From Blastocatellia bacterium (lineage in GTDB: Bacteria > Acidobacteriota > Blastocatellia > RBC074): DNA of 64,000 nt. Location: the NCBI GenBank assembly GCA_016789725.1, contig JAEUQN010000001.1, forward strand, positions 78,588 through 142,587, given 5' to 3'. The translations under genes were made by a program, and so were the position numbers. The notes below the pieces were generated by a model. The model saw nothing but the letters and a program-made list of their open reading frames with translations, had not been told where the DNA came from and made no database searches. Shown here in pieces: positions 4,284 through 22,400 of this stretch (within the stretch, counting starts at the first letter, position 1; each line of letters opens with the position of its first letter).

Positions 4284-4818
4284 ATAATCTATTCCTGAAG
4301 ACTAGCATAGCGCCGCTCATACAAATGGAAGTAATTTTGCTCGTTAGAGGGTGATCCTCATTTGGCTTTATTGGTTTTTTCGGTAACACATTTCATCTTT
4401 CTGTTTGTGTGAGCGCCAAGTGGCTTGCAATACAGAAGAGCGGTTTTATTAGCAGAGGCCCGTTTCCTTAGTATATGAGATAGGAATTCTACTCAGTCCG
4501 CCCCGGCCTGTCTCTAAATCACAATATCGCAGTACCAAACATGGGTTTCCTCCAAGGGTAAGGTCGAGCATGCATCTGGCGGATTTTCACACCAAACATT
4601 TTGTGTATGAATTGACCAGACGCTTTGCCTCCGATAGGGTCGAGAAACTGGCAGGAGCTGCGGCGGTCGCGCAAGTAGATTGGAATCTGCATCAGGTGGG
4701 TACTGCTTTGTTTCGCTTCTCAGTTGCCGCAAGGTAGAAAGTTGATCGAAGAAGTTTCAGATCACCAGGAACAACAGGAACCTCGGATCACACTTAGCAG
4801 GGAAGAGGTTTTTAAGCA

Positions 4819-5913
4819 ATGGGTATCTGGGTCGAAATCTTAAAACTTGGTGGCGCGGGCGAATATACGATAGCGCGAAAGATGCTCGCGCTGAACCTGC
4901 CTTTTTCATTACGAGATTTTGCTCCGTCAAGTGCAAGTCAGCGTCAGTATCACGGCGTGCTCCCGCGTGCCGTCAGGCGGTTTGCCATGACCCTTCCTAC
5001 CAACGAAAAAGGGTTGCTCCAGAGCTGCGAATCAGATTTTATTGATACTCTCCTGACAGATGTCTGTGAAGAAGTTGAACGGACATTATTACTGGTGGAG
5101 CTATGCCATCGGGAACCACAAGTGACGATAGAGCAGTTGCAACAGCTTTTCCCCTGGTCGCAAGGTCTCAAGCGAAGCGAGGGTTGGAAAAGAGCACGGC
5201 TGCTGGGGTATCTCCGCTCCTTTCAGGCTGTAGGAGTACATCTTCCTCCTGATGTTTGTCACACGGTTGCAGCCGCCGCTGAGCAGGAAGTCCCGGTCTT
5301 TTTATTTGATGAAATTGCTTATGCCGTGTCTGGTAGGCGAATGGAGCAAGGCTGGAAGGATTTCAAAGAAGAGATGGAGTGGAGTGATAGATTTGTCGGA
5401 ATCATCACCGGCGAAGAGGATATGTCAAGCGCCGCTGAGTGCTTGGATTATAGTTCCATTGTCTCCGCGCGATGGCTGGTCAATCCGATTGATGAAGACG
5501 CCGAGCATAAGGTCGAGTGGCTCCTCTTAGGAAGGGAGGTAAGCCCTGATTTGATGGCGCTCCTGGATTCTTTGCACGCGAACAGCCCAACCGATGGCTA
5601 TAGGCCGATTGCTTGGCATAATGTTTTTTGGAATCTCTCTTCCAACTATGAATCTCTGCCCCTCGCGCTGGAACTGCGAAGCCCTTTTCAAGAAACCGAT
5701 CAGGAATTGGCAGATCATATTGTCTCTCATTACACCGAAGTGAAGAGTACCTCGCGCCCTGTCATTTCACGGCGGAGAAAAAAGCTGTATGACATTTGTG
5801 CGGAGCGCATCATCCGCCGTCTGCGAGAATATTTCGCGCCGACGGAAAAAAATGTGATTGAGGTGAACAAAACGAAATCGGAATCACACTTACCCTTGAG
5901 TGAGGAACAATGA
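4819..5913 (+). CDS. hypothetical protein, first gene of the defense-like operon (364 aa)
   Basis: Stop overlaps the start of the 2104-aa helicase gene (ATGA). I recognise no domain. It is preceded by a 535-bp AT-richer intergenic region. Confidence 0.5.
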   Translation: MGIWVEILKLGGAGEYTIARKMLALNLPFSLRDFAPSSASQRQYHGVLPRAVRRFAMTLPTNEKGLLQSCESDFIDTLLTDVCEEVERTLLLVELCHREPQVTIEQLQQLFPWSQGLKRSEGWKRARLLGYLRSFQAVGVHLPPDVCHTVAAAAEQEVPVFLFDEIAYAVSGRRMEQGWKDFKEEMEWSDRFVGIITGEEDMSSAAECLDYSSIVSARWLVNPIDEDAEHKVEWLLLGREVSPDLMALLDSLHANSPTDGYRPIAWHNVFWNLSSNYESLPLALELRSPFQETDQELADHIVSHYTEVKSTSRPVISRRRKKLYDICAERIIRRLREYFAPTEKNVIEVNKTKSESHLPLSEEQ

Positions 5914-8900
5914 GCGGAACAACAACCATCTCGATCTCATCGGCGCTGCTACAAAAGGCGGCGCAATATGCGAGGCTATGTTCTGCTGCGGCCACGCGCG
6001 AACGTGTGTTGGTTTCTCATACGGTAATGCTCGCTGTGCAGGAATATCTGGAAAAGGTGCTAGGCGTAGCAGCGGAGCAGGGGCGTTCGCCCCAACTAAA
6101 ATTTGTCGAATTGCTTGATCTGGCAGATTTCCGTTTACAAGGATGGTCGCTTGAGGTACGGGCGATAACGTCGGTGGTCGAGCCCGCCCTTTATGTTCCT
6201 ACTATGCCCATGCTTGTCGGGGCGTTGGCAGATCATTACTTGGCGGCACAAGTGAATCGCTCGCTGACAGAGATAGAGGTCTTTGGCTTTGCCTGTCGAG
6301 AGGATTTGTCTGAAGCTGAATTGAGCGCGAATGGTCTCTTCGCCATCTTGCCAAGTGACTTACTGAGACCATTTGTCGAGTTGCCTTCGCTTCTCAGTAA
6401 ACCCTCTCGCAAAGACCCTGCGCCAGGAAGCGCATTTGAGGAATGGCAGGTACGAGGGGAGCGATTGTTATTGAACGTGAGTGAATGGCTCACAAACGAA
6501 GCTGTCTTTAGCCCAGAACAAATTGGGCACTTAGCCGCAGGACTGCGGGATGAGGTGCTGCGCGTTTACGGCGAACATCTGCCCGCTACTGGGGTAGAGC
6601 CATTACTAGAGCAACTCTTTCGTCGCTTTGGCATGCGACGCCCTGTACCGGCACCACCGCAGAGTGATTTGTTGTTTGCTCCTAGTGCCGAGGAGCAAAC
6701 AGAATTTGCGCGCTGGGAAAACCGGGAAAGCTATTTTCAGGACAACCTATATCCGGCGGAACGCGCGTCGCTTTACCGCTACTTACTGGCGGATGAAGCC
6801 GCCTTGCAGGAACATCGGCAAATGAGAAAGACGCTGGATCGGGCGACGAAAGGGAAACACCTGGCGTCACCACAGCGACGAAAACGGATGGCCCGACAGC
6901 AACAAAGTCGTTCCGTTTCTGCCACGCTGGAGACAGAACCTATCGCCCCAGACTTGCTCACAGCACTCACACAGGAAAGGGAATTCATGACAGGATCACC
7001 ATCATACGCACCTCACACGGCATCGAATGATTCGATGAATATCTTTGCATTTCGGGATCGCTTGATCGCTGATTACGCCAGCTATGTACAAAGCTTTATT
7101 CAAATTCGTAATCCCCGCGTTCGTGATTACGTCAACGAGCAACTCAATGCGGGTGTCTTTTACCCGGAGCCGTTGATTCAATTGAATCCCTCTTTTGCTC
7201 TTGGCGATTCACTTGACCAACTCATCACTGATCAGGTGTTGCATCCCGAATGTGCGAACATCTTTCGCAAAGATAAAGAAGATACGATTAGTTCAGGCCG
7301 ACTGCTTAATCTTCACCAGCATCAGACGGAAGCGATCAAAGCTGCACAGAAAGGCCATAATTATGTGCTGACGACCGGAACGGGATCGGGCAAAAGCCTC
7401 TCGTACATCATTCCTATCGTGAATCACGTTTTGCGGAATGGCACGGGGCGCGGCATTCAGGCGATTGTTGTCTATCCGATGAATGCACTGGCAAATAGTC
7501 AATTCGGTGAGTTGGAGAAGTTTTTATGTCGTGGGTATCCAGATGGGCCACCTGTTACTTTTGACAAATACACAGGACAGGAAAATGAGGAGGAACGAAA
7601 GCGCATTACACACAATCCTCCTGATATATTGCTCACAAACTATGTGATGTTGGAGCTGATCCTGACGCGCCCGGCTGAGCGGAAAATCATTGAAGCCGCT
7701 CGCGGGTTGCGATTTCTCGTCCTGGATGAATTACATACCTATCGTGGGCGGCAAGGCGCGGATGTGGCCTTACTCGTGCGGCGTGTGCGTGATCGCTTAC
7801 AAGCGAATGAACTGCAATGCGTCGGTACTTCTGCCACGATTGCCGGTGGTGGCACGTTCGAGGAACAACGAACAGAAGTGGCGCGTGTTGCAACACGGCT
7901 CTTTGGGGCAGCGGTGCGCCCGGAGGCCGTCATCATGGAAACGCTACGGCGCACCACCCCAGACCACGATGAACAGGATGCGAAGTTTGTCGCGGAGTTG
8001 AAGCAGCGTCTGGTTGAGATTCGTAAGGGAGAGCTTTTTGCGCGGGATTATGCCAGCTTTGTGAACGACCCATTGGCCATCTGGATCGAAAGCACATTAG
8101 GGGTCAAATCGAAAGACGGGCGACTCGTCAGATGCCAGCCACAAAGCATTACCGGCGAAGAAGGCGCGGCGAAAAAGCTTAGTGATCTGACTGGTATTGA
8201 GCGAGACCACTGTGAGGCTGCGATTGTGCGGGCTTTATTAGCGGGCTATGAATGTGAAAAGAATCCAGCCACGGGGTTCGCGCCCTTTGCTTTTCGCCTC
8301 CATCAATTCATCAGTCGTGGAGATACCGTCTATGCCACACTGGAAGAAGAAGCGGCACGCTATCTCACCATTTATGGACAACAGTACAGGCCCGGATCGC
8401 GTGAACACGTATTGCTCCCGCTCGTTTTCTGCCGTGAATGCGGGCAGGAGTATTACGGAGTACGACGTATCTACAATAAACAAAATCGGCCTGACCATTT
8501 CGCTCCACGCCAATTGAATGATCAATTAAGCGATCAGGAGAGCGAAGCTGGATTTCTTTACTTCAGCACGGACAGGCCATTTCCGACCGATGAAGAACAG
8601 ATTATCAATGAAAATCGTGTGCCCGATGATTGGGTTGAAGAACGAAAGGGGAAGTGGCGTATTCGGAAAGATCGCCAGGCAGATTTACCACGAACTATCT
8701 TGTTGGGGACAGATGGTGTGGAAGCGCCAGAGGGGAGGCACTTCAGTTATATCGCCGCGCCGTTCCGCTTCTGTCTCTGTTGTGGTGTGGCCTACGGTAT
8801 GCGGCAGCGCGATGATTTTGCGAAGCTTTCCTCGCTGGGTTCGGAAGGCCGGAGCACCGCCACCACGATTACCAGTCTTTCGGCGATTCGCTCCTTGCGT

Positions 8901-11900
8901 CGTTCCTCCTTGCCACAACACGCGCGCAAGCTGTTGAGCTTTACGGACAATCGGCAGGACGCTTCTTTGCAAGCGGGCCACTTCAACGACTTCATTGAAA
9001 CGACACTTTTACGCTCAGCCCTTTATCAGGCGGTGCGCAATGCCGGGGCCAATGGTATCAGCTACGATGAACTGACAGGAAAAGCCTTTGACGCATTGCA
9101 ATTGCCGCGCAAGCTATACGCCAAAAACCCGGAAGAGAAATTTCAGCACATCAAAGATACTGACCGCGCTTTGCGCGAGGTCATCGGCTATCGCCTCTAT
9201 CGTGATTTAGAACGGGGCTGGCGCATTACCATGCCGAATCTGGAGCAGTGCGGGCTTTTGCGTATGGAGTATCAATCATTGGATGAACTTTGTGCGGAAG
9301 AAAGCGAATGGATGAATTGTCATCCGTCGCTGACGACAGCAACGCCAGCAGTACGACAACAGATCGCCAAAGTGTTGTTGGATTTCATGCGCCGCGAATT
9401 GACCATCAACGTGAGTTATCTGGATTCACGCGAGCAGGAAAAGATCAAACAACAAAGCAATCAACGTCTCATCGCTCCATGGGCGATAGATGAAAATGAG
9501 AAACTTGAATACGCCGGAATTCTCTTTGCGCGGTCGCGCAAGCCCGGTGATCCTGCCGAAAATACTTATCTTTCGGCGCGCGGTGGCTTTGGGCAATATC
9601 TGCGGCGCACGACAACCTTTACCGACCTGCACCATCGTCTGGACTTGAACGAGACAGAAACGATCATCGCGGACTTACTGCGGATTTTGGCCACAGCCGG
9701 GCTTGTCACAAAAGTCGTAGAGGAACAGAAAGAGGAAGTCGCGGGGTATCAGCTCATGGCGTCGGCCTTACGTTGGACAGTGAGCGATGGTGCGCAGGCA
9801 TTTCACGACCCCATCCGCATGCCCAATGTGCCAGAGGGCGGTGGTCGAACCAATCCCTATTTTGTGAACTTCTATCGCGACCTAACGACGGATTTGCAGG
9901 GTTTGGAAGCGCGTGAGCATACCGCCCAAGTGCAATATGAGTTGCGCGAGGAACGAGAAGAAAAGTTCAAAACAGCGGAATTGCCCATTCTTTATTGCTC
10001 GCCCACGATGGAGCTTGGCGTGGACATCACCGAACTTAATGTGGTGAATATGCGCAACATGCCGCCCACGCCTGCCAATTATGCGCAACGCAGCGGGCGC
10101 GCTGGGCGCAGCGGCCAACCGGCCTTAGTTTTTACTTACTGTACGACCGGTAGCCCGCACGATCAGTATTTCTTCAAACGCCCCGATTTGATGGTGTCCG
10201 GGCAGGTTTCCCCGCCCCGTCTTGATCTGGCAAATGAAGATTTGGTGCGGGCGCATGTTCATGCGATCTGGTTGGCGGAGACAGGCATTTCGCTGGGAAA
10301 ATCCCTGAAAGAGATTCTTGATCTCTCCGGTGAAGAATTAACGCTAGATTTGTTCGAGAGCATCAAATTGCAGGCGGATGCACCTGTCGTCAGGCAACGC
10401 GCAAGTTTATTGGCAGAGAAAATGATGGCCACGATCAAACCGGATTTAGAGGCGTGCGACTGGTACGGCGAGACCTGGTTGGATGAAGTCTTAACGCAGG
10501 CTACAACCCGGTTTGATCGCACCTGCAACCGCTGGCGTGATTTGTATCGTTCTGCCTTAAAGGAGCGGGAACTCCAAAATGACATCATCATCCATCACGA
10601 GCGTAGCCCGCAAGATAAGGAGTTGGCGAAACGAGTGCGCGGGTTAGCTGAATCCCAACTCAAACTTTTGACCGAAGTAGAGAACGTCGCACAATCAGAT
10701 TTTTACAGCTACCGTTATTTTGCGAGCGAAGGCTTTTTGCCCGGGTACAATTTCCCGCGTTTACCGGTATCGGCCTTTATCCCGGCGCGTCGCAATAAGC
10801 AACGTGACGAATTCGTTTCGCGCCCGCGCTTTCTTGCCATTTCAGAATTTGGCCCGCGCGCTTTGGTTTATCACGAAGGCTCAAAATACGTCATCAATAA
10901 GGTCATTCTTCCGATCAGCGAAGGCGGCGATGTCTTGACGCAGCGCGCCAAGCTCTGCGAAGGCTGTGGCTATCTGCACGAGATTACACAAGGGGAAGGA
11001 CTGGATTTGTGCGAACGCTGTCAGCGCCCATTGAGTGCGCCGTTAACCTCACTCTTCCGGCTCCAAAATGTCTCGACGCGGCGGCGTGACAAAATCAACT
11101 CAGATGAAGAGGAGCGCATTCGACTCGGCTATGAAATTATTACCGGCGTGCGTTTCAGCGAGCATGCCGGCCAGCAAGTTTGCCGCACGGCTGAGGTATG
11201 CGTCGGCGATCAAGTCATTGCCCGTCTTTTCTACGGGCAGGCAGCCACCTTATGGCGGATCAATTTGGGATGGGCGCGCCGCCAAAATAAAAACCTGCAC
11301 GGATTCGTTTTGGATGTGGAGCGAGGCTATTGGAAGAGCGAAAGCGATGCCGCAACGGATGACCAGGAAGACCCCATCTCTCGTCGCACCTCGCGCGTGA
11401 TCCCTTATGTGGAAGACACCCGCAACTGCTTAATGATCGAACCGGTCGCGCCGCTCGCGGAAGAGCAAATGGCATCTTTGCAGGCCGCGCTCAAAAACGC
11501 GATTCAGGTACGGTATCAGCTCGAAGACAATGAACTGGCAGCGGAACCGTTACCCACGGTCTATGATCGGCGGCTTTTGCTGTTCTATGAATCTGCTGAA
11601 GGTGGTGCCGGTGTGTTGCGGAGAATGCTGGAAGACGAACAGGCATTTGCAAAGGTTGCCGCAACAGCTCTCGAATTGTGCCACTACACGATTGACGGAA
11701 TAGATCAGCGTCGCGCCTTACGGGCCAAAGAGGACTGTGAAGCAGCTTGCTACGATTGTCTGATGAGCTATTTCAACCAGCGCGAACATCGTCTACTGGA
11801 TCGGAATTTGATTCGTCGAGAGCTATTGCAATTTGCCAATGCGCTGGTCAAAGAGTCACCGACTTCTGTTCCTCGCGCCACTCATCTCGAACAATTGTTA

Positions 11901-12224
11901 CAACAATGTGATTCAGAACTTGAGCGCCAGTGGCTGCGGTATCTGGACGAAAATGGTCATCGGCTACCAAGCCACGCACAATCCCTGATCGAAGCCGCGC
12001 AAACGCGCCCGGACTTTCTCTATCGTGAGGAACAGGTTGCGATCTACATTGATGGGCCGATCCATGATTTTCCTGAGCGGCAACAGCGCGACCGCACCAA
12101 AGCAGACTGGCTTGAAGATCAAGGCTACACGGTCATTCGGTTTGCCCACAATGAGGAATGGGCGGCGGTTCTGCAAAAATATCCCCATATCTTTGGGAAA
12201 CCGCAAACGCCGCAGGAGAAATGA
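5910..12224 (+). CDS. Giant SF2 (DExH) helicase with Zn-ribbon/DUF1998-like Cys clusters and a C-terminal DUF559 (Vsr-like) endonuclease domain; DruE/DrmA-DrmB-like
   Basis: Helicase motif I (LTTGTGSGKSL), motif II (LDELH), motif III (GTSATIAG) and motif VI (QRSGRAGRSG) are all present. Cys clusters: CRECGQEY, CLCCG, CEGCGY..CERCQ, CEAACYDC. The C-terminal ~45 aa (VAIYIDGPIHDFPERQQRDRTKADWLEDQGYTVIRF) matches the DUF559 pattern. Confidence 0.65.
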   Translation: MSGTTTISISSALLQKAAQYARLCSAAATRERVLVSHTVMLAVQEYLEKVLGVAAEQGRSPQLKFVELLDLADFRLQGWSLEVRAITSVVEPALYVPTMPMLVGALADHYLAAQVNRSLTEIEVFGFACREDLSEAELSANGLFAILPSDLLRPFVELPSLLSKPSRKDPAPGSAFEEWQVRGERLLLNVSEWLTNEAVFSPEQIGHLAAGLRDEVLRVYGEHLPATGVEPLLEQLFRRFGMRRPVPAPPQSDLLFAPSAEEQTEFARWENRESYFQDNLYPAERASLYRYLLADEAALQEHRQMRKTLDRATKGKHLASPQRRKRMARQQQSRSVSATLETEPIAPDLLTALTQEREFMTGSPSYAPHTASNDSMNIFAFRDRLIADYASYVQSFIQIRNPRVRDYVNEQLNAGVFYPEPLIQLNPSFALGDSLDQLITDQVLHPECANIFRKDKEDTISSGRLLNLHQHQTEAIKAAQKGHNYVLTTGTGSGKSLSYIIPIVNHVLRNGTGRGIQAIVVYPMNALANSQFGELEKFLCRGYPDGPPVTFDKYTGQENEEERKRITHNPPDILLTNYVMLELILTRPAERKIIEAARGLRFLVLDELHTYRGRQGADVALLVRRVRDRLQANELQCVGTSATIAGGGTFEEQRTEVARVATRLFGAAVRPEAVIMETLRRTTPDHDEQDAKFVAELKQRLVEIRKGELFARDYASFVNDPLAIWIESTLGVKSKDGRLVRCQPQSITGEEGAAKKLSDLTGIERDHCEAAIVRALLAGYECEKNPATGFAPFAFRLHQFISRGDTVYATLEEEAARYLTIYGQQYRPGSREHVLLPLVFCRECGQEYYGVRRIYNKQNRPDHFAPRQLNDQLSDQESEAGFLYFSTDRPFPTDEEQIINENRVPDDWVEERKGKWRIRKDRQADLPRTILLGTDGVEAPEGRHFSYIAAPFRFCLCCGVAYGMRQRDDFAKLSSLGSEGRSTATTITSLSAIRSLRRSSLPQHARKLLSFTDNRQDASLQAGHFNDFIETTLLRSALYQAVRNAGANGISYDELTGKAFDALQLPRKLYAKNPEEKFQHIKDTDRALREVIGYRLYRDLERGWRITMPNLEQCGLLRMEYQSLDELCAEESEWMNCHPSLTTATPAVRQQIAKVLLDFMRRELTINVSYLDSREQEKIKQQSNQRLIAPWAIDENEKLEYAGILFARSRKPGDPAENTYLSARGGFGQYLRRTTTFTDLHHRLDLNETETIIADLLRILATAGLVTKVVEEQKEEVAGYQLMASALRWTVSDGAQAFHDPIRMPNVPEGGGRTNPYFVNFYRDLTTDLQGLEAREHTAQVQYELREEREEKFKTAELPILYCSPTMELGVDITELNVVNMRNMPPTPANYAQRSGRAGRSGQPALVFTYCTTGSPHDQYFFKRPDLMVSGQVSPPRLDLANEDLVRAHVHAIWLAETGISLGKSLKEILDLSGEELTLDLFESIKLQADAPVVRQRASLLAEKMMATIKPDLEACDWYGETWLDEVLTQATTRFDRTCNRWRDLYRSALKERELQNDIIIHHERSPQDKELAKRVRGLAESQLKLLTEVENVAQSDFYSYRYFASEGFLPGYNFPRLPVSAFIPARRNKQRDEFVSRPRFLAISEFGPRALVYHEGSKYVINKVILPISEGGDVLTQRAKLCEGCGYLHEITQGEGLDLCERCQRPLSAPLTSLFRLQNVSTRRRDKINSDEEERIRLGYEIITGVRFSEHAGQQVCRTAEVCVGDQVIARLFYGQAATLWRINLGWARRQNKNLHGFVLDVERGYWKSESDAATDDQEDPISRRTSRVIPYVEDTRNCLMIEPVAPLAEEQMASLQAALKNAIQVRYQLEDNELAAEPLPTVYDRRLLLFYESAEGGAGVLRRMLEDEQAFAKVAATALELCHYTIDGIDQRRALRAKEDCEAACYDCLMSYFNQREHRLLDRNLIRRELLQFANALVKESPTSVPRATHLEQLLQQCDSELERQWLRYLDENGHRLPSHAQSLIEAAQTRPDFLYREEQVAIYIDGPIHDFPERQQRDRTKADWLEDQGYTVIRFAHNEEWAAVLQKYPHIFGKPQTPQEK

Positions 12225-12225
12225 C

Positions 12226-15048
12226 ATGTCCTTTGCTATTGGATCACTCGTCAAAGCGCGAGGTAGAGAATGGGTTGTGCTGCCTGGCTCAGAAACAGAA
12301 TTATTGATGGTGCGCCCACTGGGCGGCACGGAAGACGAAGTCACGGGCTTACTTCTCCCGCTCGAAAAGGTCGAGTCCGCCCAATTCGCGCTGCCCAATC
12401 CGGCGCAGCTTGGCGATTACCGTTCGTGCCGATTACTGCGTGATGCCGTCCGGCTCAGCTTTCGTTCCAGCGCCGGGCCGTTCCGTTCCTTTGCGCGGTT
12501 GGCGGTCGAGCCACGTCCCTATCAATTGGTGCCGCTGATGCTGGCCCTCAAATTGGAACCCGTGCGAATGCTCATCGCGGATGACGTAGGCATCGGCAAA
12601 ACAATTGAAGCGAGTTTGATTGCGCGCGAATTGCTGGATCGCGGGGAAATCGAACGACTCGCCGTTTTATGTTCTCCGCAGTTGGCCACCCAGTGGCAAG
12701 GTGAATTGCGCGACAAGTTTCATATAGAAGCCGAAGTCGTCCTGCCTGGCACAGCTACGCGACTGGAACGCAATTGCCGCTTGAACGAATCATTATTTGA
12801 ACGCTACCCCTTTGTCATCGTCTCCACAGATTTCATCAAATCAGAGCGACGGCGGGCAGAATTCCAACGTACCTGTCCTGAGTTCGTCATTGTGGATGAA
12901 GCCCACACTTGTGCTTACGGCTGGGAAGGCCGAGGCGGACGACATCAACGATACGAATTACTCAAGGCCATTGCTGCCAATCAAGATCGGCATTTGGTAT
13001 TAGTGACGGCGACGCCGCACAGTGGCAACGAAACGGCCTTTCGCTCGCTTCTGACCTTGCTCAATCCTGAATTTGCCAACTTGCCAGAAGAGTTGATGGG
13101 AGCCGCGAATGAGCCTCATCGTCGCCGTCTTTCCGCACATTTCATTCAACGGAAACGGCGCGACATTCGAGATTATTTAGGAGCCGATACGCGATTTCCT
13201 GATCGTAAGGAAATGGAACTTGGCTATAAGCTGTCCAAAGAGTACAAGCAGCTTTTTGACCGTGTCTTGCATTACGCGCGGGAAGTCGTTAGTGATGAAA
13301 ATAACCAGGATCACCGGCAGCGGGTGCGCTGGTGGTCGGTGCTGGCCCTGCTGCGCTCCCTAGCCTCCAGTCCGGCTGCCGCCGCTGCCACGCTACGCAC
13401 TCGGGCTGCCAGCGCTGACGCAATAAGCTTGGCAGAAGCCGATGCGATAGGTCGCCGCACGGTGCTTGATCTGACCGATGATGAATCCGTCGAAAGCGCC
13501 GACCTGACGCACGGCAGCGATATAGGTGATGAAACAGAGGAAGAAAAGAAAAATCATCGCCGGTTACTCGACATGGCGCGTGAGGCAGATGCTTTGCTTG
13601 GTGCCAAAGACCAGAAACTCCAGCACGTCATGGAGATCGTTCGTGATCTCATCAAAGAAGGATTTCACCCCATTCTCTTTTGCCGTTTTATCCCAACGGC
13701 GGAATACGTGGCGGAGGAGTTGCGCAAAAAACTGCGCGGCGTTGAAGTCGTAGCCGTGACCGGCAAACAGCCATCAGACGAACGCGAGGAGCGTGTTAAT
13801 CAATTGGCCCAGTCGCCCCAGCGCGTCCTCGTTTGCACCGATTGTTTGAGCGAGGGCGTCAATTTGCAGGATCACTTCGATACGGTCATTCATTACGATT
13901 TATCGTGGAATCCCACCCGCCATGAACAACGCGAAGGCCGTGTGGATCGCTATGGACAGGAAAAAGACGAAGTCCGCATGGTGACCTATTATGGTCTCGA
14001 CAATCAGATTGATGGGATTGTCCTCAGCGTGCTGATTAGCAAGCACAAGAAGATTCGCAGTTCGCTCGGTATTTCCGTTCCCGTTCCCGTCAACACCGAT
14101 CAAGTCATCGAAGCGATCTTTGAGGGGTTGTTATTGCGCGGAAAAAAAGGCACGCCCGAAGAACAAATGCTGCTGTTTGAGGATTTCATGAAGCCGAAGC
14201 GGGAAGAACTCTATGGCAAATGGGATGAAGCAGGATTACGCGAAGAAAAACTTTCCCAGACGATGTTTTCCCATCGGCCTATTAAGGTGGAAGAAGTATC
14301 CAGAGAGTTGGAGGCTGTGCGCGCGGCCATTGGTGCTGGTGTGGATGTTGCTACTTTCACAAAGCAAGCGCTAACCGCCTACAAAGCAGCCGTCACAGAA
14401 AACAATCATGAGGTTCGGTTTGATATAGCGGAAAGCCCGCGCGCTTTGAAGGATGTCATTGGTTTGGGCCGTGATCAGTTTACCGCGCGCTTTGAATTGC
14501 CTGTCAAAGACGGTCAGCTTTACCTGAACCGCACCCACCCCATTGTCGAAGAGGTTGCCGCGCATGTGCGCGACACTGCACTTGACCCGCTGAGCGATGG
14601 CATTGCGCATCGTTGCGGCGTCATTCGCACACGCGAGGTCAATCGGCGCACGACCCTGATGCTCTTGCGGCTGCGCTATCACATCATCACCAAACGAGGC
14701 GAAGAACAATTTCCCTTGCTGGCCGAAGATGCGCAGCTTGTCGCCTTCGCGGGCGCACCGGCAAACGCCGAATGGTTGGAGGCTGAGGCCGCAGAACACA
14801 TCCTGGAATTACAACCCGATGCCAATGTGTTGCCCGATCAGGCCACGATGTTTCTGCAAAAAGTGCTGGATGAATTCGCACTGCTGCAACCGCATTTACA
14901 GCAGGTCGCTGAGGCGCGCGGCGCTGCACTCTTGGAAGCTCATCGCCGTGTGCGCACTGCCGCACAGATCAAAGGCGCGAGCTACGAAGTGAAAACCGAA
15001 ATGCCCGATGTGCTGGGCATCTATGTTTACCTGCCTGTTGCGTCATAG
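12226..15048 (+). CDS. SNF2-family helicase (DISARM DrmD-like)
   Basis: SNF2 motifs DDVGIGKT, VIVDEAHT and TATPHSGNE. Helicase-C motifs CTDCLSEGVNLQ and HEQREGRVDRYGQ. The start codon lies 1 nt after the upstream stop, with AGGAG 8 nt upstream. Confidence 0.75.
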   Translation: MSFAIGSLVKARGREWVVLPGSETELLMVRPLGGTEDEVTGLLLPLEKVESAQFALPNPAQLGDYRSCRLLRDAVRLSFRSSAGPFRSFARLAVEPRPYQLVPLMLALKLEPVRMLIADDVGIGKTIEASLIARELLDRGEIERLAVLCSPQLATQWQGELRDKFHIEAEVVLPGTATRLERNCRLNESLFERYPFVIVSTDFIKSERRRAEFQRTCPEFVIVDEAHTCAYGWEGRGGRHQRYELLKAIAANQDRHLVLVTATPHSGNETAFRSLLTLLNPEFANLPEELMGAANEPHRRRLSAHFIQRKRRDIRDYLGADTRFPDRKEMELGYKLSKEYKQLFDRVLHYAREVVSDENNQDHRQRVRWWSVLALLRSLASSPAAAAATLRTRAASADAISLAEADAIGRRTVLDLTDDESVESADLTHGSDIGDETEEEKKNHRRLLDMAREADALLGAKDQKLQHVMEIVRDLIKEGFHPILFCRFIPTAEYVAEELRKKLRGVEVVAVTGKQPSDEREERVNQLAQSPQRVLVCTDCLSEGVNLQDHFDTVIHYDLSWNPTRHEQREGRVDRYGQEKDEVRMVTYYGLDNQIDGIVLSVLISKHKKIRSSLGISVPVPVNTDQVIEAIFEGLLLRGKKGTPEEQMLLFEDFMKPKREELYGKWDEAGLREEKLSQTMFSHRPIKVEEVSRELEAVRAAIGAGVDVATFTKQALTAYKAAVTENNHEVRFDIAESPRALKDVIGLGRDQFTARFELPVKDGQLYLNRTHPIVEEVAAHVRDTALDPLSDGIAHRCGVIRTREVNRRTTLMLLRLRYHIITKRGEEQFPLLAEDAQLVAFAGAPANAEWLEAEAAEHILELQPDANVLPDQATMFLQKVLDEFALLQPHLQQVAEARGAALLEAHRRVRTAAQIKGASYEVKTEMPDVLGIYVYLPVAS

Positions 15049-15125
15049 GCGATAGATTTTGCCGAAAACAAAGTCTCGGTACTTGTTGATAACTACCGAG
15101 ACTTTGCTAAAAGCGAGTTGAGGAT

Positions 15126-15404
15126 ATGAACAAGCGTACAGCCTTTGACATCGTGGATTGCCTGGGGGAGGAATTGGATTTGATTGCCGATGCCGCCACA
15201 ACCAAATGGAAAGCCTATTTCGCGCGCTGGGCCTACGAGGTTTTGCAGCAATCGCCGAAGAATTACCTGTACCAGAAAGACGGGCAGGAATATGTGAAGG
15301 TGTTCGATAATCACCACATCCCATTCATTGTTCACATGCGCATTGCCGCCATTGGTGATGACCTCGCGGACGCCTGCGGTTGTCGCCGCGAAATTGACGA
15401 ATAA
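15126..15404 (+). CDS. small hypothetical protein (92 aa)
   Basis: GAGG Shine-Dalgarno 6 nt upstream of the ATG. The stop is 6 nt before the MTase start. I recognise no motifs. Confidence 0.4.
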   Translation: MNKRTAFDIVDCLGEELDLIADAATTKWKAYFARWAYEVLQQSPKNYLYQKDGQEYVKVFDNHHIPFIVHMRIAAIGDDLADACGCRREIDE

Positions 15405-15410
15405 GAATTT

Positions 15411-18400
15411 ATGCAACTTCGACGTCGTAATCTCTTCACCACCATTCGCACCGAGGGTGCAATCCTGCCTGCGGATTTGTTGCAGCGGATCAATGACCGC
15501 GATGCGCAAATCAAAGGGCTGACGCCGGAAGACTATCATTTGGCCGGAAGCCTGAAAGTCAACGAAGCGATCAATCAATCCTATAACCGGATGCTCAGCG
15601 CGTGGGCTTCGTTTCAGACGGCACTGCAAAATCTGACACCCACCGATGCGGGGACGACGGTAACGCGCGAAAAATGGTTGCTGCCGTTGTTTCAGGAACT
15701 CAGTTATGGTCGTTTGCCAACGGCCAAAGCCATCGAAGTCGAAGGCAAGCCGTATCCCATTTCGCACACGTGGCAAAACACGCCGATTCATTTGGTCAGC
15801 GCCAAAGTTGATCTGAATACTCGTACTGCCGGAGTCGCAGGCGCGGCCCGCGTTTCGCCGCACGGATTGGTGCAAGAATTACTCAACAGTTCAGACGCGC
15901 ATTTGTGGGGCTTCGTCTCCAATGGATTGCAACTGCGGATGCTGCGCGACAATGTGAGTTTGACGCGGCAGGCGTATGTCGAATTCGATCTCGAAGCGAT
16001 GATGAACGGCGAACTCTACGCCGATTTTGCGCTGCTCTGGTTGCTGTGTCACGAATCGCGTGTGAATGCCGAAGAGCCGCAGGCCAAACCATCTGATTGC
16101 TGGTTGGAAAAATGGTCGAAGACGGCGCAGGAACAAGGCACACGGGCGCTCGATGCCTTACGCATTGGCGTCGAAGACGCCATCAAAGCGTTGGGGCGCG
16201 GCTTTATTTCGCATCCGGCAAATCAGGGCTTGCTCAGCCAATTGCGCGGCGGCACGCTCGACAAACAGGATTACTATCGGCAACTGCTGCGGCTGGTCTA
16301 TCGGCTGCTGTTTTTGTTTGTAGCCGAAGACCGCGACTTGTTGTTTGCGCCGTCTGCTGATGAAACGATGCGCGGGCGGTACACGCGCTTCTATTCGGTG
16401 TCTCGTTTGCGCAAGCTGGCAGAACGGCGCATCGGTACACGCCACAGCGATTTGTATCACGGCTTGCGGTTGGTGATGCAAAAGCTGGGGAATGGCGGAT
16501 GCAACGAACTCGGCTTGCCTGCGCTCGGCAGCTTTTTGTTCTCGAATGACGCCATTGCTGCGCTGAACAATTGCGAAATTGCGAATCACGATTTGCTGGA
16601 AGCGATTCGCGCGCTGGCCTTCATTCGTGATGAACACGGCTTGCGCACGGTGGATTATAAAAACCTCCGCTCCGAAGAACTCGGCAGCGTCTATGAAGCA
16701 CTGCTTGAACTGCACCCGATTATCAATGCTGAGGCGCGCCATTTCGATCTGGATTCCGCCAGCGGCAACGAACGCAAGACGACGGGCAGCTATTACACGC
16801 CGGACAGTCTGGTGCAATGCCTGTTGGATTCCGCGCTTGATCCGGTCGTTGCGGAAGCAATGAAGCAACCGGATGCAGAGGCCGCACTGCTACGATTTAA
16901 AGTCGTAGACCCTGCCTGCGGTTCTGGTCACTTTCTGATTGCAGCCGCGCATCGGCTCTCGAAGCATTTGGCATCCGTTCGCACAGGCGATGGTGAGCCT
17001 GCGCCGGAAGCGATTCGCACGGCATTGCGTGACGTGATCGGGCATTGCATTTATGGCGTAGACATCAATCCGATGGCGGTCGAATTGTGCAAGGTATCGC
17101 TCTGGATGGAGGCGCTGGAACCCGGCAAGCCGCTCACCTTTTTGGAACATCGCATTCAATGCGGCAATGCGCTGATTGGCACGACTCCGGCGCTGATGAA
17201 ACGCGGGATTCCTGACGAAGCATTCAAGCCCATTGAAGGCGATGACAAAGCGACCTGCGCCGAATACAAACGCTACAACAAAAAGTATCGTGAAAGCGGG
17301 CAGCGCAATATCTTTGAATCTGAAATCAAGCTCGGCAATCTGGCCGTGAGCCTGCTGGCATTGGAAGAGATTGACGACAGTACGATTGCAGGCGTGCGCG
17401 AAAAGCAGCGGCGTTGGGAGCAGCTTGTTCGCTCTAATGATTATCTGTATGGCGGGCTGCTGGCGGATGCGTGGTGCGCGGCGTTTGTGTGGAAGAAAAT
17501 CGAAGACCGCAATCATCCTTACCCAATCACAGAAGAACTCTTCCGCAAAATCGAACAAAGCCCCTGGCACGTTGCTCGCAGTCATCACGAAACGGAAATC
17601 CGTCGGCTGGCGAAGCAGTATCAATTCTTCCATTGGCATCTGGCGTTCCCCGATGTGTTCCGCGTGCCAGTCAATGATGAAGAGCCAGAGAATGAGTTGG
17701 CAGGATGGAATGGCGGGTTTGATGTTGTACTAGGCAATCCGCCGTGGGAGCGTATTAAGCTACAAGAAAAAGAATGGTTTGCCGAACGCAATCCTGAAAT
17801 CGCTAATGCACCAAATTCGGCGGCTCGGCGGCAAAAGATCAAAGAGCTACGCGAAGCAGATAGTTCACTTTATGATGCCTTTCTGGAGGATTGTCGAAAG
17901 GCCGAAGGAGAAGGGCATTTCGTGCGAAGTAGTGATCGTTATCCGCTTTGTGGGCGGGGCGACATTAATACATATGCAATTTTTGCTGAGACGAATCGAA
18001 TGATCGTCAGTAATTGGGGGCGTGTTGGTTGTATAGTACCATCTGGTATAGCAACCGATGACACAACTAAGTTCTTTTTCCAAAATTTGATGGAGCTACA
18101 GCTTCTAATCAGCTTATTCGATTTCGAGAATCGTGATGGAATCTTTCCTGGTGTACACCGAAGTTACAAATTTTGCTTACTCACGCTTACTGGCAAAGAC
18201 AAACCTGCAAAGTTAGGCACAAAGTTTGTGTTCTTTGCGTATTCGATACATGACTTAAACGAAACATCGCGCCAATTTACTTTATCTGCTACTGAAATTG
18301 CGTTGCTCAATCCCAACAGCCACACTTGTCCAATCTTCCGATCCATTAGTGATGCCGAGTTGACTAAATCAATTTATCAACGCGCCCCTATTCTCCTAAG

Positions 18401-19463
18401 AGAATCGCAAACTGAGCTTGGCAATCCTTGGGCTATCGAAATTGGGCGCATGTTCCATACTTCTGATGATTCGCCATTGTTCTGTGCAGAGGGTAGTAGT
18501 AAAATGATGCGTTTATACGAAGCTAAGTGTTACTGGCAATTTGATCATCGCTACGCAACCTTTTCAGAAAATGATTACCAAGAAGTTTGCGAAACTCAGA
18601 AGCAAGACACGCAATTCCAGATTAATGTCCGTTACTATATTGAGTTTGTAAAAATACCCCAGAAGTTTCGCCAGCGGCTATCAAAATGGCATCTTTCGTT
18701 CAGAAAGATAACAAGGTCTACTGACGCAAGAACGCTCATCGCCAGTATTACACCTTTATCTGGTCTGCTTGATTCTGGCAACAACATTTATATTAAGTCG
18801 GCTTCTCATGCCGCTTGTTTGCTAGCATCTCTGAACTCTTTCGTTGTTGATTATGTTTCACGTCAAAAAATTGGTGGCCCAAATATGACTGTTGGTGTCA
18901 TTTCACAAGTTCCGAGTCTGAGTCCTGCCACTTATAATCAGGACTTCTCATTGATAAATGAAACACAAACATTACGCAGGTGGATATTGTCGCGTGTATT
19001 GGAGCTTACTTACACTGCCTACGACCTGCAAGGCTTTGCCGAAGATTGCGGCTATACAGGCGAGCCGTTCCGGTGGGACGAAGCGCGCCGCTTCCTGCTC
19101 CGCGCAGAATTAGACGCTGCCTACTTTCACCTCTACGGTATTGCGCGTGCCGACGTAGACTACATCCTCGACACCTTCCCCATCGTCAAACGCAAGGACG
19201 AAGCGCAGCACGGCGAATACCGTACGAAGCGCGTGATTCTGGAAATCTACGACGCGATGCAACAGGCCATCACCACCGGACAACCGTACCAAACCTTGCT
19301 TGATCCGCCGCCTGCGAATGGCTGGACACCAGCGGAAAGCAGGGATGAGGGCGGAGGGATGAGGGATGAAGAACAGACAGTGACAGCGCCCCAGGCCGAA
19401 GCCTTTCAATTGGAGATGCAGGACGCACGGCCACAGCCGACATTGTTCGATATTGTCGAGTGA
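15411..19463 (+). CDS. N6-adenine DNA methyltransferase, gamma class (PglX / DrmMI / type IIG-like), 1350 aa
   Basis: Motif I VVDPACGSGHFLIAA and motif IV VVLGNPPWE. There is a long N-terminal region. The C-terminal third is AT-rich, consistent with a target-recognition domain. Confidence 0.75.
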   Translation: MQLRRRNLFTTIRTEGAILPADLLQRINDRDAQIKGLTPEDYHLAGSLKVNEAINQSYNRMLSAWASFQTALQNLTPTDAGTTVTREKWLLPLFQELSYGRLPTAKAIEVEGKPYPISHTWQNTPIHLVSAKVDLNTRTAGVAGAARVSPHGLVQELLNSSDAHLWGFVSNGLQLRMLRDNVSLTRQAYVEFDLEAMMNGELYADFALLWLLCHESRVNAEEPQAKPSDCWLEKWSKTAQEQGTRALDALRIGVEDAIKALGRGFISHPANQGLLSQLRGGTLDKQDYYRQLLRLVYRLLFLFVAEDRDLLFAPSADETMRGRYTRFYSVSRLRKLAERRIGTRHSDLYHGLRLVMQKLGNGGCNELGLPALGSFLFSNDAIAALNNCEIANHDLLEAIRALAFIRDEHGLRTVDYKNLRSEELGSVYEALLELHPIINAEARHFDLDSASGNERKTTGSYYTPDSLVQCLLDSALDPVVAEAMKQPDAEAALLRFKVVDPACGSGHFLIAAAHRLSKHLASVRTGDGEPAPEAIRTALRDVIGHCIYGVDINPMAVELCKVSLWMEALEPGKPLTFLEHRIQCGNALIGTTPALMKRGIPDEAFKPIEGDDKATCAEYKRYNKKYRESGQRNIFESEIKLGNLAVSLLALEEIDDSTIAGVREKQRRWEQLVRSNDYLYGGLLADAWCAAFVWKKIEDRNHPYPITEELFRKIEQSPWHVARSHHETEIRRLAKQYQFFHWHLAFPDVFRVPVNDEEPENELAGWNGGFDVVLGNPPWERIKLQEKEWFAERNPEIANAPNSAARRQKIKELREADSSLYDAFLEDCRKAEGEGHFVRSSDRYPLCGRGDINTYAIFAETNRMIVSNWGRVGCIVPSGIATDDTTKFFFQNLMELQLLISLFDFENRDGIFPGVHRSYKFCLLTLTGKDKPAKLGTKFVFFAYSIHDLNETSRQFTLSATEIALLNPNSHTCPIFRSISDAELTKSIYQRAPILLRESQTELGNPWAIEIGRMFHTSDDSPLFCAEGSSKMMRLYEAKCYWQFDHRYATFSENDYQEVCETQKQDTQFQINVRYYIEFVKIPQKFRQRLSKWHLSFRKITRSTDARTLIASITPLSGLLDSGNNIYIKSASHAACLLASLNSFVVDYVSRQKIGGPNMTVGVISQVPSLSPATYNQDFSLINETQTLRRWILSRVLELTYTAYDLQGFAEDCGYTGEPFRWDEARRFLLRAELDAAYFHLYGIARADVDYILDTFPIVKRKDEAQHGEYRTKRVILEIYDAMQQAITTGQPYQTLLDPPPANGWTPAESRDEGGGMRDEEQTVTAPQAEAFQLEMQDARPQPTLFDIVE

Positions 19464-19483: not shown

Positions 19484-22400
19484 TCAACGGTCAAACATCT
19501 CGTCATAGATACTTGCAGGCGCTGCTGCTGCAATTTCAGTGCGCTCCGGTTCCGTTTGCAATGTGCGTTCGATGCTTTCTGCGCGCTCTTGCCGTTCGTC
19601 GGTACGACCTTCCTTGGCGTGTGTGTAGTCGGATTGCTGATCGTCGCGCATCATCATTGCATTGCGTGTTGCGAGAGCTTGATCGGTGGGCAATTCTTGC
19701 TCACGATTTGTCGTAACTTCGGTTCTTTCGGTCGAACGTTCCAAGCCAGGTTCGCGTTCTATTGCCTGATCTACCAACCGATCCAGTTTCTCGAAGCCGC
19801 CATAGTATTTCTCGCGGGCCGTGAGTTCGGAATGCTGAAACGCTTGCAACATCTCGCGCTCCTGGGGCGTCGCTTGTTGCATCGCTTGGGCCGTGAAGTC
19901 GTTGTTGTTGACTTGTTCTCGGCTTTCCGCGATTGCATTATGACGGGCTGTTTCTGCGCGTGTTGCCGCCTCCCGTAAATACTCCCGGCTGCCTTCCGGG
20001 AGATTGAGGGTTGCGAGTTTGTCACTGAACTGCTGACTATTCGCGCGTCCTTCGTAGTGATCTTTGATGAGCGGCACAAGCTCATCTTTTCGCCCTTCCA
20101 ATACTGCTTTGTAGCCTGGTTCCTGAAGGCCACTCTTCCAAGTGTTAGCCCATTCTGTGCGACCGGCAGATGCCGCTTGCTCCTGCCCTTGCGCTTCGGC
20201 CACGCGCGCTACAATTTCTTGCTTGTGACGGTTGAGCGCATCGCGGGCATTCAGCACATCATTTTGATATTCGCGCATTGTCTCCACTTGCTTGAAGACC
20301 TGATGAGCGGTCAGGTCTTTCTCGGCAACGCTCTGGCCGCGCGCTTCTGCATTGTCTTTGCGGCGATGAATCTCATCGGGTATTGTTGCGACCCACGTTT
20401 CTTTGGAAATCTCTCGTGATAAGAATTCTTTGCTTTCCGGGTTCTGGCGAACGGTCACTTGTCCATCTGCCACCATACGCACTTGTGTGACTACCTCGGT
20501 CTTGGGATCGGCTTTTGCCGCTGTTATGGCCTCGGCGTAGGCTTGATAGCTGCGACTATGAATCGCAACGGCTCCATACAGCCGCTCGCCTGCGTCACGG
20601 CGCAGATGTAGCTCCTCGCTGGCCTGCTTGGCGATAAGGTTCACATAGCGCCGCTCGACATCGTTCAGCGTAGGACGACCCTCTTGTTTGCTGATGGCTT
20701 CTTCCAGCCGCTGACTGAGCGTGTCATGGTCACGCGCAGATTGAATTCGGGTGACGACTTCCTGCGCTTGTGGACTCGCTTTCTCCGGCGCATGCACTAA
20801 GGACTCGGCGCGCAGGCTGGTGACTTGTTGGTAGATAAAATCTTTCTCCGTCGGCCTGAGTTGCGCGACATTTTCCCGCAATTGCCAGGACTGTTCCTGG
20901 GGCGTCATCTCGCGTGAGAGTTTGGTGTTGGGGTTCACTAATGCGGCAAACCGATTGAGCTTTCCGATGTCGGGTCGTCCTTCGCGATCACGCTGTAGAT
21001 CAAGCGCCGTGATGATCTTCTGAACTGGCTCCGAGAGTTGTGTTTTCCCCTGCTGCATTCGCTCCACTTCGTTGCGCTTGTCTTGGGCTGTGAGAAGAGT
21101 GTCATGGAGTGCGCGGTGCATCTCCGGCGTGTAGTGCTGGGTGTGTGGGCCAGGGTTGGCCAGCAGCGCGCGTTGCTCGGTCGTAAATTTCCGATGACTG
21201 GTCTCCTCGCCTGCGCGTTGTTTGGCGGCATTGCTGTTGTTGAAGTCGCGGATCTGACGCGCCATCTTCTCTACATCGTCTGCGGTTTTTTGTTGGCGCA
21301 GAGCCTCGACAGCTCGTTGAAAGACGGGTGAGCGATTGCTCTCTCGCACGTAAGCATCCTCGCGCAGAACTTGTTGGGTGTACTGTTCGGTGAAACGCAC
21401 CAAGCTTTGATATTCCGCTTTGATGTCTGCGGGAGAAGCGCCTTTGGCCCGCGCGGTTTCGATGGCTGCCAAGTGGCTCTCATATTCCCGTGCGTTTTGT
21501 TGGGCGCGATAGGCTTCTCTTCCGGGTCTGTCTTCGATTCGGAGCGGGCGTTCGGCTTGCGCGTCGTTGTAGTTGCGCACATATTCGTTGATCTGGCGTT
21601 GTCCTGCCTGAGATGTCTCCCAATGCGGATTGGGCGCAAGTAATAATTCTTTGTCGCGCGGGCTGAGGTATGGATTCATCAACACCCGCTCGGCAAAGAT
21701 CATTTCTCGTTCCGCTGTCATCGGGCGTTCGCCCATTTTCAGCCGATCTGCATACATCTCCCGAAAATGAGTGTGTTCGCCCTCTGGTGCATTGGTACGA
21801 AGCGCGAATTCCTGCGCCCTTGTCGCATAATCTCGTGACGCCTTGTGCGCCCATTCAGGACTTTGGGCGAGTTGTTGCAGTTCGAAGGAATTGAAGCTAT
21901 TGGCCCGCGCTATTTCTTGCACATGTTGGTATTCGCGTGCGCCTTGCGCCTTGAGATGATCAGTCAAATCTAGTGTTTCTTTGTTGCCAACGTAGGCAGA
22001 ATGCTCCAATAAAGTCGCTGTTTCTTTGCGCGACAATCCTGCGTTGAGAATGTCCTGTCCCAAGCGTTCTGCGTCGGCAGGTGAAAGCTGTCCTTGCTGA
22101 TAAGCGTCGTATCGCCCCGCCAAACCTTGTCCGCGCTCGGTGCTGAGAATCCGGGCGACATCCTGTTGCTGATCGAGATAGTGTCCAGCGAAACGTTGGA
22201 CAGTGCGCGCGCCTTCGACTAACTCTCGCGGGCTGATCTGTAAACGCAATGCTTCCGTGATGCTCGGCATGGCGGTTCTGACGAGATATTGGTCGGTAAA
22301 GAGATGTTCATTGCCTGGGAGGCTGGTTTGCTGATCCAAACCGCCAATCCGAATGGCAGAAGTATTGAAAACTGTCCCTTCTCGCACGGCCTCGAAATCC

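Follow-up and report, generated by a model that had tools for sequence, protein, structure and literature searches.

A probable ARMADA Type I defence cassette with an accessory g1/DUF1822-module pair on a conjugative element of a Blastocatellia bacterium

ARMADA is the name given to operons in which a YprA-like helicase occurs together with a BrxHII-like helicase and a PglX-like methyltransferase (MTase), and which have been described as the 'missing link' that joins DISARM to Druantia (Bell et al. 2025, bioRxiv 2025.09.15.676423). ARMADA helicases end in a C-terminal Vsr nuclease that is predicted to be active, while N-terminal DNA-binding domains were described in that report only on the helicases of DISARM and Dpd; its main text does not contain the domain DUF1822. 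Of 80 phages, E. coli carrying ARMADA Type II was protected from 13, without abortive infection, and this defence requires all of its genes, the Walker motifs and the NPPW motif of the MTase (Bell et al. 2025). No methylation motif of an ARMADA system has been reported. In the available part of Table S1 of the same report, DR_B0135 of the D. radiodurans MP1 locus and the helicase of DATMAG010000119.1 are both entered as ARMADA Type I helicases. Here we describe a five-gene locus at positions 4819-19463 of a 64,000-nucleotide (nt) stretch from a Blastocatellia bacterium of the Acidobacteriota (assembly GCA_016789725.1, contig JAEUQN010000001.1, positions 78,588 to 142,587, forward strand), the whole of which is called the window. 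We propose, with a probability of roughly 0.85, that the locus is an intact ARMADA Type I system directed against phages or other mobile genetic elements, carried as cargo on an integrative and conjugative element (ICE) of a soil Blastocatellia bacterium and accompanied by an accessory pair, i.e., a gene called g1 and an N-terminal module of the lead helicase. The helicase, the SNF2 helicase and the MTase are referred to below as ArmC, ArmA and ArmB, respectively, and the small gene between the last two as g4.

The placement is carried by the helicase. The core of ArmC is 80% identical to the DATMAG010000119.1 helicase (Blastocatellia; P0007/L010 of our homologue search, in which loci carry L numbers) and 46% identical to DR_B0135 over 1757 aligned columns, the latter being found by tblastn of plasmids on Deinococcus megaplasmids and aligning collinearly across its full length. 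Because these two listed Type I helicases are so similar to it, the core is considered a member of the described family. On the Deinococcus megaplasmids the ArmC homologue is followed by an SNF2 gene ('helicase-related protein') and then by an N6 methylase gene, which is the same three-gene synteny. The traits of ARMADA Type I were found at the locus one by one: a YprA-type DExH helicase with DUF1998/MZB, a C-terminal Vsr nuclease, an adjoining SNF2 helicase and an adjoining PglX-like MTase, arranged in the Type I order of helicase, SNF2 and MTase. Compared with ARMADA Type I, the three proteins are 46-80% (helicase), 49-51% (SNF2, the Deinococcus neighbours of ArmC) and 41-43% (MTase) identical; the window differs by a 375-amino acid (aa) N-terminal extension of ArmC made of DUF1822 and anti-sigma-like helices, by the extra upstream partner g1, and by the 92-aa gene before the MTase.

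Pfam assigned to ArmC the domains DUF1822 (aa 7-151), DEAD (470-645), Helicase_C (1318-1402), MZB/DUF1998 (1857-1951) and DUF559 (2035-2082, E 1e-6, over the gathering score), and homologues are named 'very-short-patch-repair endonuclease' or 'ATP-dependent helicase YprA' in JGI. The helicase motifs are GTGSGKS490, DELH606 and QRSGRAGR1393, with five CxxC motifs, among them the pairs at 841 and 955 between RecA1 and RecA2; the insertions of ARMADA Type I helicases between or within the RecA domains (BrxA-like, beta-barrel zinc module, MarR-like) were followed in ArmC by motifs and alignment only. ArmA carries Pfam SNF2-rel_dom and Helicase_C with motifs GIGKT122 and DEAH224. Its PADLOC matches are PDLC02853 'DpdE' (865 bits, full length), DrmD (283 bits) and BrxHI/II (216 bits), and its NCBIfam matches RapA (119 bits) and DpdE (205 bits against a cut-off of 500). 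To judge by these matches, PDLC02853 of PADLOC 2.0 probably represents ArmA-like proteins under a Dpd label, and it could mislabel ARMADA loci as Dpd. ArmB matches Pfam Eco57I, N6_Mtase and MmeI_Mtase, contains DPACGSG500 and NPPW776, scores 235 bits with PADLOC DrmMI and gives partial matches to NCBIfam PglX. The catalytic motifs of all three proteins are intact.

The closest described systems differ from the locus as follows. With DISARM class 1 the window shares an SNF2 helicase, an N6-adenine MTase (the PADLOC DrmD and DrmMI matches given above, which are partial-family matches) and a YprA-type helicase with DUF1998, but DISARM splits between DrmA and DrmB what is fused in the window, and the window has no PLD nuclease DrmC and instead a Vsr nuclease fused to the helicase; DISARM was rejected as an assignment, as NCBIfam DrmD scored 309 against a cut-off of 610, DrmA scored 20.7 against 950, and no DrmMI equivalog matched. 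Among the PADLOC models ArmC is closest to DruE of Druantia, likewise a large helicase-nuclease (DruE3 363 bits, DruE1 317 bits); these matches are partial (ArmC 385-1049 on model positions 13-679 of 2055), neither DruH, DruA-D nor DruM-F-G is present, and the window differs in its SNF2 and MTase partners and in having Vsr in place of PLD. Druantia was therefore rejected as well. ARMADA Type II (E. coli NCTC 12900 / ATCC 8739) has homologous ArmA, ArmB and ArmC functions, but its gene order is reversed (ArmA-ArmB-ArmC), and its obligatory ArmD, a RelE-GajB-like helicase, is absent from the window, where no UvrD-like open reading frame (ORF) lies within 4819-19463.

An initial annotation, made from the letters alone, had called the locus a candidate undescribed DISARM/Druantia-like methylation-based defence operon and knew of no described system with its arrangement. 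Its position between DISARM and Druantia and its helicase-rich, methylation-linked character stand; the word 'undescribed' does not, since the core order and the C-terminal nuclease are those of ARMADA Type I (Bell et al. 2025), a catalogued system in which similarity to the listed helicases places the core, and membership in DISARM or Druantia themselves was not upheld, the NCBIfam scores lying below cut-off, the DruE matches being partial and the partner genes being absent. Two further statements were right according to Pfam: helicase and DUF1998 functions are fused in a single protein, and a Vsr/DUF559 nuclease stands in for the PLD nuclease, a PLD domain being found in none of the five proteins. 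The DUF1822 domain of the helicase had gone unmentioned. The description of five coupled plus-strand genes with their sizes, domains and motifs likewise agrees with the ORF list, the junction sequences and Pfam, including the 940-aa length of the SNF2 protein.

The five genes are co-directional and tightly packed (Table 1). Stop and start overlap as ATGA between g1 and armC, and gaps of 1, 77 and 6 nt separate armC from the SNF2 gene, the SNF2 gene from g4, and g4 from the MTase gene, respectively. The mechanical ORF list contains a longer SNF2 frame of 1007 aa starting from GTG at 12025 and overlapping the helicase gene; the start is taken as the ATG at 12226, with an AGGAGA Shine-Dalgarno sequence 6 nt upstream, and an exact-sequence look-up found the identical 940-aa product in NCBI as MBL8202640.1. 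The proteins of the window are MBL8202635 to MBL8202672, and the helicase, MBL8202639.1, is annotated there as 'DUF1822 family protein'. The genes are not a chance run of ORFs, because many genomes keep the cassette together. Scans for promoters and terminators scored at background or close to it and were left aside, and by megablast the operon had no match in complete E. coli genomes.

What sets the locus apart from the published family is g1 and the module behind it. The search yielded 87 homologues of g1, of about 350 aa, with no Pfam domain and nearly all from Acidobacteriota; g1 appears to be undescribed so far. Linkage was tallied by tblastn for the window and 13 related loci with readable sequence downstream of a g1 homologue, and the N-terminal module of about 345 aa lies directly downstream of g1 in 14 of 14, a linkage that is strict across these loci. 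The module is fused to the ArmC core in the window, L003, L004, L011 and L012, and to an HmaA-type SNF2 helicase of an Hma system in L006/L007, L008/L009, L013, L015 and L017 (PADLOC HmaA 641 bits, HmaB 390 bits); in L018 it stands ahead of a UvrD-like helicase with ArmC further downstream, and in L005 and L016 the contig stops within or shortly after the module, so that the fused protein is unreadable. These Hma systems of Acidobacteriota thus bear the same g1 gene and the same module, 44-51% identical, on an unrelated core; Hma comprises the SNF2 helicase HmaA, the DUF1156 methylase HmaB and the ATPase HmaC, with a DUF499 ATPase and with neither a YprA helicase nor a Vsr nuclease. The identities of g1 (34-58%) and of the module (42-58%) to their window counterparts rise and fall together, and the Hma-linked copies are as near to the window as the ARMADA-linked copy of L004, so the pair has apparently been transferred between systems as a unit. 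L012 (CAZXHW010001017.1) is a 2.8-kb contig binned as 'Heliomicrobium sp.' whose g1 and ArmC start are 95-98% identical to the window; it is either a binning error or an element crossing phyla. In chromosomal ARMADA and Hma copies a DEDDh/PolB-exo2 exonuclease gene, 64-65% identical between loci, often lies directly upstream of g1; it is also present in L007, is a relic in L008 and L009 and is absent from both ICE copies. This exonuclease gene may belong to the add-on as its third component.

The AlphaFold2 model of the module (pLDDT 86.7, alignment without L008) consists of a DUF1822 alpha/beta domain with a PD-(D/E)xK-like fold (residues 1-150) followed by helices to residue 340, of which those at about 170-221 are homologous to a zinc anti-sigma (zf-HC2) domain whose zinc ligands are absent. 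Three acidic residues (D70, D73, E82) are invariant, E31 almost so; an invariant R84 takes the place of the usual lysine (E82-V-R84). In its full length the module is seldom found (35 representatives below 1e-30 in a profile search of 1.84 billion representative proteins), while its first 165-215 residues match the N-termini of many proteins of 700-1300 aa. Of seven long matches that were scanned, five carry zf-HC2 along with DUF1822, some of them with TonB_C in addition, and in three loci, which are orthologous and count as one context, a gene for a sigma factor of the extracytoplasmic function (ECF) type lies downstream; DUF1822 has been reported next to ECF sigma genes in conflict systems (Kaur et al. 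2021). The module and the DUF1822-zf-HC2 proteins align by hhalign over residues 1-221 (probability 99.6%, E 5e-24), with DUF1822 and the anti-sigma helices in the same order and the alignment spanning the zf-HC2 helices, whose H and C ligands the module has lost. Those relatives differ in keeping the H-x3-C-x2-C zinc motif, in their length and TonB_C-type C-termini, and in their recognisable ECF sigma neighbour.

The partner protein g1 is modelled as all-helical (pLDDT 83.9). A g1 profile of 46 members (E<=5) gave no match to Pfam, and likewise none to PDB sequences, PHROGs, PADLOC or NCBIfam. That g1 might be a paralogue of the module was rejected (hhalign probability 0.3%). Comparisons with ECF sigma factors by hhalign were not significant either, whether with the sigma next to DUF1822-zf-HC2, with a four-sequence sigma profile, or with a hand-entered E. 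coli RpoE query; sequence comparisons found no sigma regions 2 and 4 in g1. A sigma-like g1 is a hypothesis, not a finding.

The MTase gene is a mosaic. ArmB is 90-100% identical to its counterparts in L003 and L021 at aa 1-800 and 1200-1300, but only 22-56% at aa 800-1200, just past NPPW776, and the remaining cassette genes are 95-96% identical to L003. This pattern is the signature, at the level of sequence, of a swapped putative target-recognition region, and the swap amid near-identical flanks argues for sequence-specific recognition. Between the SNF2 and MTase genes lies a variable slot, occupied by AbiE in L003 and L021 and by a PIN toxin-antitoxin pair in L011. Its upstream edge is marked by the hairpin of the window, to which a related hairpin followed by a T-run corresponds in position in L003 and L021, where AbiE is inserted behind it; the window hairpin could serve as an attenuator separating the MTase gene from the helicase genes. 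In the window the slot contains g4, which matches no PADLOC model, has six homologues, and is absent from L003, L004, L011 and Deinococcus. One homologue, 82% identical, occurs in L021 after AbiEi/AbiEii and before the MTase, and those 52-58% identical are in unrelated contexts. A conserved ARMADA component was rejected for g4, with so few homologues and the distant ones in unrelated loci; given these contexts and the variability of the slot, g4 is regarded as cargo and not as a system component. The initial annotation had counted g1 and g4 together as two unknown small proteins added to the operon; both are there, but they are not equivalent, g1 being the conserved partner of the module and g4 sporadic cargo.

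By analogy with ARMADA Type II, the cassette may act in defence as follows. ArmC is a YprA-like DExH helicase with an OB-CON-DUF1998 region and a Vsr-type nuclease. ArmB would read a DNA motif through its exchangeable recognition region and methylate the copies in the host genome, so marking self; the ATPases ArmA and ArmC would move along unmarked incoming DNA and unwind it, leaving it to be cut by the Vsr nuclease of ArmC, and the host would be protected directly and non-abortively. The g1 protein may bind the N-terminal module, the pair gating or reporting helicase activity as a regulatory or sensing attachment, and g4 is incidental cargo, its slot being one that toxin-antitoxin pairs occupy in relatives.

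Several points weigh against this reading. Experimental activity within ARMADA belongs to Type II only, which has the fourth gene ArmD, and self-protection by methylation is a presumption for every ARMADA system. In four relatives (L010, L011, L018 and L021) a GajB-like UvrD helicase gene adjoins armC; it recalls ArmD of Type II, yet stands within an operon of Type I order, between ArmC and ArmA, and it is absent from the window and L003. From this comparison of sequences the window copy could be a reduced form. The ArmC of L003, 96% identical, has an extra acidic tail of about 115 aa after the Vsr domain (L003 16301-16657), which ArmC of the window lacks (cf. 12200-12224), the SNF2 start lying 1 nt past its stop. 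MBL8202639.1 is not among the entries listed in the available part of Table S1 (Bell et al. 2025), and ArmC is assigned to its clade by similarity rather than by a tree. As for the add-on, Foldseek of g1 against PDB returned nothing at E<0.7, and no significant sequence match to g1 was obtained anywhere searched.

Two further explanations concern the add-on. The DUF1822 domain may be a second active PD-(D/E)xK nuclease, or a sensor of DNA ends or modification, with g1 as its inhibitor or specificity subunit, in which case the add-on would act on DNA cleavage, widening or gating it, and would have nothing to do with transcription. The conserved acidic residues of the domain, and the DEDDh/PolB-exo2 gene often found directly upstream of g1 (L006, L011, L013, L017), speak for it; the lysine of (D/E)xK, however, is replaced by R84 in the anti-sigma-linked relatives as in the module, and the same domain occurs in membrane anti-sigma-type proteins unlikely to be nucleases, so we hold this possible but unlikely. 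The other explanation, which would refine the ARMADA reading, is a partner switch derived from sigma and anti-sigma factors: g1 would be a diverged sigma-like protein binding DNA or RNA polymerase, held by the anti-sigma-like helices of the module, and released when the helicase engages foreign DNA, with altered transcription of the operon or of other genes. The homology of residues 1-221 to the DUF1822-zf-HC2 proteins with their downstream ECF sigma gene, the conflict-system context reported by Kaur et al. (2021), and the strict pairing of g1 with the module and their ATGA overlap, as would suit a 1:1 complex, are consistent with it, and the best hhalign stretch puts g1 269-328 on region 4 of RpoE, non-significantly and with a hand-entered RpoE query. 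Every g1-sigma sequence comparison was non-significant, however, as was Foldseek; an ECF sigma is only half as long as g1, the module has lost the zinc ligands of the anti-sigma motif, and the three DUF1822-zf-HC2 loci, being orthologous, are one context. We consider the switch rather doubtful.

Two others would give the whole cassette a different task. It might serve the conjugative element itself, in anti-restriction or establishment (by methylating transferred DNA) or in the exclusion of competing elements; its site is within the transfer region, flanked by the coupling-protein and relaxase genes, and the near-identical sister element L003 retains it at the same place. Defence cargo is, however, common on ICEs, and the cassette with its add-on is also found in chromosomal contexts outside ICEs (L004, L011), and the cassette on Deinococcus plasmids with no transfer genes nearby; a predicted active nuclease and two translocases are not needed by anti-restriction methylases, and ARMADA Type II is a bona fide anti-phage system. 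We judge a service to the element improbable. That the cassette is a DNA-repair module of the MrfA/YprA type is suggested by the YprA family of the helicase (the JGI name) and by the DEDDh exonuclease gene beside some relatives, which recalls MrfB, but it is highly improbable, given that the helicase groups with the defence branch (80% identity to a listed ARMADA helicase), that a large sequence-specific MTase with a swapped recognition region is linked to it, and that toxin-antitoxin insertions and a mobile-element location go with the cassette. We retain an intact ARMADA Type I system as the preferred reading.

Table 1. Features of the window and of the related loci named in the text. Positions are those of the window or of the locus indicated.
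Feature	Locus	Position	Strand	Remarks
VirD4/TraG-type coupling protein of a type IV secretion system (T4SS)	window	1205-3457	+	750 aa; Pfam T4SS-DNA_transf, TrwB_AAD_bind, TraG-D_C; NCBIfam conju_CD1115 175 bits
5' relic of a gene, taken to be helicase-like	window	4570-4737	+	55 codons (MHLADFHTKHFVYELTRR...HQV..ALFRF); in the 535-nt spacer upstream of g1
g1	window	4819-5913	+	364 aa, all-helical (model)
ArmC, whole gene	window	5910-12224	+	2104 aa
ArmC N-terminal module	window	5910-6944	+	aa 1-345; DUF1822 and anti-sigma-like helices
ArmC core	window	7035-12224	+	aa 376-2104; YprA-family DExH helicase, DUF1998/MZB, C-terminal Vsr/DUF559 nuclease
ArmC DEAD	window	7317-7844	+	Pfam
ArmC Helicase_C	window	9861-10115	+	Pfam
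ArmC MZB	window	11478-11762	+	Pfam
ArmC DUF559	window	12012-12155	+	Pfam
ArmA, BrxHII/RapA-like SNF2 helicase	window	12226-15048	+	940 aa
Hairpin, perfect 12 bp	window	15070-15105	+	directly past SNF2 stop, edge of variable slot
g4	window	15126-15404	+	92 aa
ArmB, PglX-like N6-adenine MTase	window	15411-19463	+	1350 aa
ArmB putative target-recognition region	window	17808-19010	+	aa ~800-1200; swapped relative to relatives
ORF convergent with the MTase gene	window	19484-23263	-	1259 aa
MobL/MobA-type relaxase	window	26416-28662	-	Pfam MobL 47.5 bits and a weak Relaxase match
Cus-like RND efflux operon	window	41951-48017		OEP, HlyD, AcrB-family
Heavy-metal P-type ATPase	window	50357-52684
GajB-like UvrD helicase	L010	15617-17572
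GajB-like UvrD helicase	L011	16652-18700
GajB-like UvrD helicase	L018	4909-6942
GajB-like UvrD helicase	L021	1553-3583
DEDDh/PolB-exo2 exonuclease	L006	9287-9985
DEDDh/PolB-exo2 exonuclease	L011	8199-8888
DEDDh/PolB-exo2 exonuclease	L013	9279-9959
DEDDh/PolB-exo2 exonuclease	L017	2540-3166

That the operon is carried by a mobile element, as the initial annotation had it, is confirmed by the Pfam and NCBIfam matches of the coupling protein and relaxase; both flank the operon as claimed, but the relaxase gene is about 7 kb past the MTase gene and not adjacent to it. The coupling protein is of the Firmicutes-type CD1115 family and 96% identical in L003. The spacer upstream of g1 is about 97% identical to L003 and contains the gene relic, which we take, by our own reading, to resemble helicase N-termini; it has no PADLOC match and no family assigned. 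The L003 relic has a further 72-nt deletion, so we regard this as the decaying remnant of an earlier gene at the cargo site, outside the working system. On the other side, the 1259-aa ORF had no match in Pfam, NCBIfam, PADLOC or PHROGs, and its place holds other genes in L003 (438 aa) and L021 (464-482 aa). Defence and metal resistance travel together, as the efflux operon and the P-type ATPase are on the same element. A second ARMADA Type I helicase of the same metagenome-assembled genome (JAEUQN010000040.1, JNM09_10995) is among the entries in the available part of Table S1 (Bell et al. 2025).

The three-gene core was known as ARMADA Type I; g1, the N-terminal module and the swap of the ArmB recognition region go beyond Bell et al. 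(2025). The core is a further Type I system, on a conjugative element with metal-resistance genes, which shows the spread of the family and is unsurprising alone. With its swapped region, ArmB forms with its relatives a naturally matched set from which the motif methylated by an ARMADA system could be worked out. Should the g1/module pair regulate or gate the lead helicase, restriction-like defence would have in it one of few control modules that can be transferred, and Pfam DUF1822 would gain its first functional context. A bolder idea, on balance doubtful, is that ArmC and HmaA, from two unrelated methylation-linked systems of Acidobacteriota, acquired a diverged partner, g1, along with the cytoplasmic head (DUF1822 and an anti-sigma domain) of an anti-sigma factor of the ECF type, as a portable partner switch; if true, helicase engagement would release a sigma-like or DNA-binding factor and link a restriction-like effector directly to a transcriptional alarm.

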